This document shows, one piece after another, positions 17,479-17,739 of a DNA stretch of 64,000 nt. Positions within the stretch are counted from its first letter, which is position 1. Each line of letters begins with the position of its first letter. Origin of the DNA: Escherichia coli (lineage in GTDB: Bacteria > Pseudomonadota > Gammaproteobacteria > Enterobacterales > Enterobacteriaceae); NCBI RefSeq assembly GCF_022846255.1, contig NZ_AP025682.1; one strand, written 5' to 3'. The notes beneath the pieces were generated by a model, which worked only from the letters and a program-made list of their open reading frames with translations, did not search any database and was not told the origin of the DNA. A program made the position numbers and the translations under genes.

Positions 17479-17739
17479 TTAAATTTTATCCGCGTGGTGC
17501 ATCAGCACAAATTTATCCCACAACTGTTCTTCCGTCTCGACATGTTGCGGATCTTTCACAATAGTATTGGGGATCGGACACACCTTCTGGCAGGTTGGTG
17601 TCTCGTAGTGCCCTACGCATTCGGTACACTTATCGCTGTTAATCTCGTAGATATGTTCACCCATCGAAATCGCCTCATTCGGGCATTCGGGTTCACACAT
17701 ATCACAATTAATACAGCGTTTAGTAATTAGTAAAGACAT
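17479..17739 (-). CDS. yfhL: 4Fe-4S ferredoxin-like protein YfhL; 5' end supplied by the prophage
   Basis: 86 aa with two CxxCxxCxxxCP clusters; codons 11-16 coincide with the attL core and codons 1-10 plus the promoter lie in phage DNA. Confidence 0.85.
17692..17709. repeat. attL core, 18-bp direct repeat TTCACACATATCACAATT
   Basis: Identical to 59971..59988; lies within yfhL codons 11-16 (NCDMCE). Confidence 0.7.

Follow-up and report, generated by a model that had tools for sequence, protein, structure and literature searches.

When phages such as P22, P4, and HP1 integrate at tRNA genes, attP duplicates the end of the gene and the target stays intact. The protein-coding gene icd, used by phage 21/e14, follows the same pattern, with an attP that duplicates the target-gene end and a gene that is intact after integration (PMC3603311). 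Replacement of a 5' end is already known as a principle from the dusA-specific integrases, and yfhL is itself an already published integration site: Bobay et al. (2013; PMC3603311) list it as a prophage target 'disrupted' by phage integration, and two further papers name it as a newly identified Stx2b prophage site (PMC10675304, PMC12029490). In the yfhL passages of these three papers the gene is described as 'disrupted' or 'integrated into coding sequence', and neither a core sequence nor any rebuilding of the gene is mentioned there. For phage OS31 (Bujak et al. 2020, PMC7556043; MT843276), a 23-bp att, TCGCACATGTCGCAGTTGATGCA, is reported in a ferredoxin gene, together with pfam13356 in the integrase, and several sections of that paper likewise carry no description of yfhL reconstitution. 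Full-text searching of the literature for 'yfhL' with 'phage' returned no further relevant paper.

What is new here are base-level E. coli att sites, a target ORF rebuilt under apparent coding constraint, a one-to-one link between integrase and site, and the breadth of the integrase lineage. We consider it very likely that the locus as a whole reflects Campbell-type insertion, by a tyrosine integrase, of a 42.3-kb myovirus into yfhL, with a phage-supplied N-terminus restoring the ORF (Table 1). The integrase would recombine attP with yfhL codons 11-16, the crossover falling within TTCACACATATCACAATT; attP carries, on the int side of the core, an in-frame imitation of yfhL codons 1-10 including a start codon; and integration joins this phage N-terminus to host codons 17-86 to give full-length YfhL. 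The native 5' end, left as an 18-codon stub, is displaced 42 kb to attR along with yfhH and the candidate native promoter.

Table 1. Features of the yfhL prophage locus, with positions in the window
Feature	Position	Strand	Basis or content
Chimeric intact yfhL, 86 aa	17479..17739	-	ORF and NF033683
attL core, 18-bp identity block	17692..17709		yfhL codons 11-16 on minus strand; exact repeat
Prophage body, temperate myovirus	17710..59970		42,279 bp counting one core copy
P' arm spacer, phage-borne yfhL start to int	17740..17954		motif scans and cross-genus alignment
Tyrosine integrase, 465 aa	17955..19352	+	PHROG_1 1.5e-26; Pfam PF00589 8.3e-07 (partial)
Small HTH protein	19349..19549	-	PHROG 4745 DNA-binding 7e-27; PHROGs 66 and 1553 at 1e-05 and 5e-05
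P arm, core-proximal	59860..59970		four AACAC(A/G) repeats: 59867(-), 59913(+), 59925(+), 59955(-)
Orphaned native yfhL 5' end, 16 residues + IK + stop (18 codons)	59962..60018	-
attR core, second 18-bp copy	59971..59988		exact repeat and four-way att alignments
TATAAT hexamer, candidate native -10	60054..60059	-	35 nt upstream of native yfhL start; conserved in K-12
yfhH, MurR/RpiR-family regulator	60074..60922	-	NF008590, 570 bits, residues 25-306 of ORF

The att sites and the empty locus

An earlier note, made by reading the DNA alone, had claimed that an 18-mer occurs exactly twice in the window (the whole 64-kb stretch of DNA analysed) and marks the prophage ends. A search of the entire window allowing up to two mismatches found two exact copies of TTCACACATATCACAATT and no additional repeats, against a mean count of 0.01 by chance, and 0 of 100 dinucleotide-preserving shuffles reached two matches. 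The left copy, read on the minus strand, encodes N-C-D-M-C-E as yfhL codons 11-16, a placement that agrees with the note. Across the core the two prophage-host junctions are identical at 18/18 bp, and a recount of the 30 bp next to each copy gave 19/30 identical, the figure on which the note had based a diverged duplicate of the yfhL 5' end beyond the right copy, adjoining yfhH as in K-12. No tRNA or tmRNA gene was found within the 64-kb window and the core lies inside the yfhL ORF, so that the description of the site as intragenic and non-tRNA stands. In four-way att alignments the cores are the point at which host-like sequence switches to phage-like sequence. The claim that the ends are known to the base holds for the att coordinates, which are exact, but not for the crossover itself: it lies somewhere in the 18-bp identity, and the ends are therefore known within that ambiguity.

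Rejoining the host flanks (17300-17709 plus 59989-60400) rebuilds an attB of 822 nt that is 100.0% identical to three unoccupied E. coli genomes. Among the 5426 complete E. coli genomes that made up the collection searched, attB was at least 80% covered in one piece in 5266, and the occupied junction (yfhL plus integrase, with 16700-18700 as query) was found in 159; together these account for 5425 genomes, which is every genome with any match. The search for other prophages at yfhL that the note had proposed thus yielded 159 E. coli lysogens, and relatives in other Enterobacterales besides. The gene order in MG1655 is pgpC-yfhH-yfhL-shoB-ohsC-acpS, and its yfhH-yfhL junction follows attR as far as the core and attL from there on. 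The stub at attR, which begins ATG GCG CTG and lies 55 bp downstream of yfhH (yfhH end 60074), is K-12 yfhL codons 1-16 save for one synonymous base, and yfhH is the native upstream neighbour of yfhL, in K-12 order. The 5' end of the unoccupied K-12 gene therefore matches the right copy and not the left, in keeping with the note's assignment of the native end.

The phage side of the exchange is represented by two independent IMG/VR viral contigs that contain the exact attP junction (about 32 nt: 8 nt of the right prophage end, core, and 8 nt of the left end) and match both prophage ends collinearly, at 98% identity. In the 11.6-kb attP contig, positions 568-2508 correspond to window 58068-60008 (98.2%) and positions 2471-10296 to window 17692-25533 (98.3%); the two matches overlap at one core, so the phage genome is continuous across a single core copy. 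All four att forms (attB, attP, attL, and attR) were recovered, and their fit to the Campbell model is supported.

Twelve genomes gave one extra partial BLAST place each for the attL and attB queries. Tandem double lysogeny was rejected for these genomes since int is single-copy in all 159 that carry it; the yfhL 3' region is probably duplicated in some form. About 600 bp from attL, and unaffected by the insertion, is the OhsC sRNA (16804-16881, minus strand; Rfam RF02495, 89 bits). This antitoxin of the type I toxin shoB occupies its K-12 position between acpS and yfhL.

The rebuilt yfhL and its att arms

The intact yfhL at attL is a composite of host sequence (17479-17691, codons 17-86), the core (codons 11-16), and phage codons 1-10 (17710-17739), a chimera of phage 5' end and host 3' part that the attB, attP, and K-12 alignments confirm as the note had described it. 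Two conservative changes, A2S and K8R, separate its product from native YfhL, and the NCBIfam YfhL equivalog NF033683 (cut-off 86) scores the chimera at 135.5 bits and the reconstructed native protein at 136.4 bits, with the match to the chimera spanning profile positions 1-78 of 80. Eight cluster cysteines are found in the chimeric translation (Cys 9, 12, 15, 19, 38, 41, 50, and 54), of which Cys9, the first ligand of cluster 1, is carried by the phage-derived codons 1-10; the core encodes the CxxCxxC cluster motif (N-C-D-M-C-E). With an intact 86-aa frame and an equivalog score near that of the native protein, the proposal that the prophage rebuilds its target gene is correct at the level of the ORF. 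PGAP annotates the chimeric gene in related lysogens as intact yfhL, and because the ORF is reconstituted and so annotated, the term 'disrupted' (PMC3603311) is inaccurate at the ORF level.

The phage-borne 30 nt were compared across nine attL/attP sequences, in all of which an in-frame ATG or GTG is kept and no indel or stop occurs. Variable sites at codon positions 1/2/3 number 5/2/9 in phage-borne codons 1-10, 5/4/15 in host-derived codons 17-33, and 0/0/5 (third positions only) in the core codons of the same sequences, and the decapeptide reads (M/V)(S/A)L(L/I)IT(K/T)(R/K)CI throughout, though 9/10 third positions vary. As this third-position bias resembles that of host codons 17-33, it looks like a signature of coding constraint on phage DNA, acting on a short segment to which Int core binding may also contribute. 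We infer that the chimeric yfhL would be expressed and functional.

From which promoter it might be expressed is a separate matter. The TATAAT hexamer upstream of the native start, which was not called by the consensus scan because its -35 is poor, is a candidate native -10 element that would have been left behind at attR; since both this hexamer and yfhH stay there, the rebuilt yfhL would need a new promoter. The note had credited the phage with supplying one, and this part of its account gained no clear backing: a consensus scan found no sigma-70 consensus promoter on the yfhL (minus) strand of 17740-17954, and a PWM scan of nine related attL/attP arms gave only modest candidates whose positions differ between relatives, so that neither produced a strong, positionally conserved site. 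A phage-borne promoter for the rebuilt gene is thus putative.

Alignment reveals blocks in the spacer that are conserved across eight genera and one phage. The block at 17770-17782 fits the IHF consensus WATCAR-N4-TTR, with invariant columns that are exactly ATCA and TT, and is a putative IHF site; a TGATT block upstream of the chimeric start was considered as a -35 or extended -10 element and rejected, its other strand fitting the IHF consensus. Further along, a LexA-like box at 17817-17832, CTGTATGTTGATCCAG, has one mismatch to CTGT-N8-ACAG in this prophage, and its counterparts in Kluyvera, Shimwellia, and LSJC7 match this motif perfectly. The box sits in the spacer between plus-strand hexamers (TTAACT-N18-TGTATT here, TTACCA-N17-TATAAA in LSJC7) that may form an int promoter, and it probably controls int. 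Lying convergent to xis and the leftward early operon, int needs a promoter of its own, and an SOS-controlled P_int would be the most economical reading of the box. Promoter-like hexamers also flank the box on the yfhL strand in some relatives, so that a divergent yfhL promoter under LexA control is conceivable too. Two AACACA repeats, at 17863-17868 and 17876-17881, are invariant across genera. Including those of the core-proximal P arm, AACAC(A/G) occurs six times in the 669-bp attP region scanned, compared with a window background of 0.73 per kb, and the last 108 bp of the right arm are common even to lysogens with different neighbouring genes. These repeats are probably Int arm-type sites. 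Taken together, IHF, LexA, and arm sites would explain the conserved spacer blocks better than a yfhL promoter would.

The same blocks bear on the possibility that insertion took place as described but that the 30 bp are there as Int core-binding homology, with the in-frame ORF a mere by-product and the chimeric yfhL silent and effectively disrupted. Such a reading sits comfortably with the lack of a convincing promoter upstream of the chimeric start in our scans, with the retention of the native TATAAT and yfhH at attR, with spacer blocks that can be put down to IHF, LexA, and arm sites rather than to a yfhL promoter, and with the listing of yfhL among 'disrupted' genes in PMC3603311. It accounts poorly for nine divergent attL/attP sequences that keep an in-frame start free of indels and stops, and a decapeptide that persists despite third-position changes, as Int binding alone would call for similarity but not for a start codon maintained 30 bp away from the core; promoters that are weak or depart from the consensus are, moreover, common and escape such scans. 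We judge a silent chimera unlikely, though a possibility to be reckoned with, and favour a rebuilt gene under coding constraint.

An extension of the rebuilt-gene reading, for which we hold out little hope, is a two-way promoter swap in which the rebuilt yfhL is SOS-regulated and host transcription drives the right-end phage genes when the prophage is integrated. Were this so, yfhL, under a phage promoter region with a cross-genus LexA box, would be an SOS-regulated host ferredoxin, and orphaned yfhH-yfhL transcription, downstream of which no terminator was detected, would read into the minus-strand ORFs 59491-59769 and 58785-59432.

Two further observations concern the right end. A perfect LexA-type box, CTGTAATTATGTACAG, at 59772-59787 ends 3 nt before the ATG of the ORF at 59491-59769 (minus strand; 92 aa, PHROG 17793, no Pfam match), placed at the very right edge of the prophage. 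An annotated LexA site likewise precedes a small gene at the right end of OS31; the two proteins are unrelated, comparison of the ORF with the OS31 'DNA damage-inducible protein' having given no similarity. A G10 homopolymer (59852-59861) in the P arm, ~110 bp from the core, separates the right-end phage genes from the orphaned yfhL promoter region; the tract is A5G10 in the window and A6G9 in the related viral contig L011, contig L012 starts just past it, and the site may be prone to slippage or to assembly error.

The integrase lineage and the prophage body

In an alignment of eight homologues, integrase residues R268, K301, R386, H416/417, and Y429 are invariant and fit the catalytic set of a tyrosine recombinase, with the first His of the usual HxxR replaced (T-M-C-R). 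The match to the arm domain Arm-DNA-bind_3 is marginal (E=0.16). Searches returned no NCBIfam model, no PDB relative by sequence, and no PADLOC match, the first two of which mark the integrase as a divergent family member. By blastn in distant mode, int is present as a single copy in exactly 159 of the 5426 E. coli genomes, at an identity of at least 92.8%, the same number of genomes as carry the occupied junction (159). No diverged paralogue at other Fe-S genes, such as dmsB (reported as another new Stx-phage site), was found in the E. coli genomes in the same mode.

Beyond E. coli, a scan of one genome per species identified seven more integrase homologues (68-95% amino acid identity), in Kluyvera, Shimwellia, Enterobacteriaceae LSJC7, Pantoea stewartii, Serratia marcescens, and two Erwinia MAGs. 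In all seven genomes yfhL starts ~215 bp upstream of int, its frame pointing away, and these yfhL frames are full-length or near (81-86 residues aligned); the int gene of OS31 has a yfhL 5' end at the same distance of ~215 bp. When 50,697 phage records were searched by tblastn, only OS31, an induced Serratia siphovirus, was found to encode the integrase (76.5% amino acid identity). The occurrence of the same int/att in the siphovirus OS31 and in a myovirus indicates that the module is common to unrelated phage backbones; judging from these comparisons, it is yfhL-specific and spread across the Enterobacterales.

The small HTH gene that is convergent with int is the last of the leftward early operon. 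Two of the families that its product matches, PHROGs 66 and 1553, are excisionase families, and in relatives the protein is annotated as AlpA family or HTH, with the OS31 counterpart annotated as excisionase; it is probably the excisionase (RDF) of the element.

Apart from mosaic gaps, the prophage shares 97-99% identity with the GenBank records vB_EcoM-611R5, 606R2, and 689R2, and its packaging, head, and tail genes are ~81-86% identical to those of Salmonella phage SEN34; an annotated relative lysogen is present at the same yfhL site. The records vB_EcoM-611R5 (ON470588), ON470579, and ON470593 bear 'complete genome' titles, yet start after int and xis, and records of the 611R5 type end in host yfhH, pgpC, and tadA. 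Rather than packaged genomes, these are wrongly delimited predictions of prophages in yfhL lysogens, and it is because they are truncated in this way that near-identical E. coli 'phage' records lack int.

The prophage body encodes functions for replication and nuclease activity (SNF2/DEAD helicase, VRR-NUC nuclease, family A DNA polymerase, and primase/VapE-like protein), regulation (CI-like repressor of the LexA family, Cro-like protein, and Q), lysis (holin, endolysin, and Rz), and structure (terminase, portal, head, sheath/tube, baseplate, invertible tail fibres, and DNA invertase). This gene content argues against a decayed, immobile remnant whose yfhL chimera is a fixed historical scar, a reading to which the single mismatch in the LexA-like box of the P' arm in this prophage might lend some weight: genes for replication, regulation, lysis, packaging, heads, and tails are all present, the long ORFs are collinear with related records, attP-form contigs at 98% identity occur in viral metagenomes, and patchy occupancy (159/5426, from many sources) fits ongoing gain and loss. 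We therefore regard such a scar as quite improbable and retain insertion by an element with a complete gene set. That the repeat is instead a chance match or a target-site duplication, with the true ends elsewhere, as in a transposable Mu-like phage or in two elements joined together, can be dismissed for practical purposes, for although tail, baseplate, and invertase genes resemble Mu/P2-type modules, no transposase was seen, the shuffles never gave two matches, joining the flanks restores an empty site at 100% identity, one core copy joins both prophage ends in the attP contigs, the fixed site and the same tyrosine integrase recur in 159 genomes, and an 18-bp repeat far exceeds the 5-bp target duplication of Mu.

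Several features of the cargo deserve mention in their own right. A 500-aa SIR2-domain protein at 25628-27130 (minus strand) matches PADLOC PDC-S25 (4e-158), a candidate defence family, as well as ThsA-like SIR2 and Pfam SIR2_2 (1e-20). Viral contig L011, though collinear elsewhere, lacks the stretch 25534-27220, and 611R5 has a different gene in its place, which indicates a swappable cargo slot beside the DNA polymerase gene. Two more candidate anti-phage proteins are encoded inside the replication module: one is TIR-like (22650-23411, minus strand; PADLOC PDC-S35, 1e-108), and the other, of 305 aa (21003-21920, minus strand), has a weak TIR-effector match (1e-06) and belongs to PHROG 3634; a related lysogen, NZ_CP074967, has different genes at both positions. 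Near the right end, a 20-nt inverted repeat, AAACCTTGGTTTGGGAGAAG, at 56123-56142 and 58069-58088 (95% complementary) brackets ~1.9 kb containing oppositely oriented tail-fibre C-terminal and assembly genes, and a Hin/Gin-type serine invertase (58114-58704, plus strand) adjoins it. By its predicted gene content, this invertible segment is a host-range switch like the Mu G segment.

Comparison with known integration systems

These results provide base-level attB, attP, attL, and attR for a site at which ~3% of complete E. coli genomes, O55:H7 strains among them, carry a prophage, and they define a divergent, yfhL-specific integrase lineage found in at least eight enterobacterial genera. Surveys of prophage insertions should count yfhL as a rebuilt gene and not as a 'disrupted' one, and the mis-delimited GenBank 'complete phage genome' records are flagged here, their true ends being the yfhL att sites. 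One further orthogonal tool for DNA integration could come from such an integrase, whose 18-bp site falls within a conserved Fe-S motif. The understanding of integration is unchanged by these data, and their practical value is modest.

Relative to the earlier E. coli yfhL prophages the locus is the same, and reconstitution of the ORF is shown here. The likeness to OS31 is close: a homologous integrase (76.5% amino acid identity), an HTH excisionase, the same yfhL codons under att, phage-borne yfhL codons 1-10 after att (minus strand), and conserved P' arm blocks. The phages themselves differ, as OS31 is a lambdoid/HK97-like siphovirus in Serratia whereas the prophage described here is a SEN34-like myovirus in E. 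coli.

The dusA-specific integrases (Farrugia et al. 2015, PMC4482086) follow the same principle of 5'-end replacement, and dusA islands share with this element an integrase that adjoins the junction and a diverse cargo against which integrase and att are constant. The differences lie in the core, which is 18 bp here and a 21-bp semiconserved repeat for dusA (PMC4482086); in the target, which is the yfhL ferredoxin and not dusA, with only ten codons replaced, including that of a metal-ligand cysteine; and in distribution, since in E. coli, unlike dusA islands, the yfhL element is mainly one myovirus lineage. The resemblance is thus one in the way of working and does not imply membership of the dusA-associated integrase (DAI) clade. 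Finally, in the case of phage 21/e14 at icd and in the tRNA cases it is the 3' end that is replaced and the host promoter is kept, whereas at yfhL the replaced part is the 5' end, so that start codon, translation-initiation region, and any promoter that the gene uses change with it.
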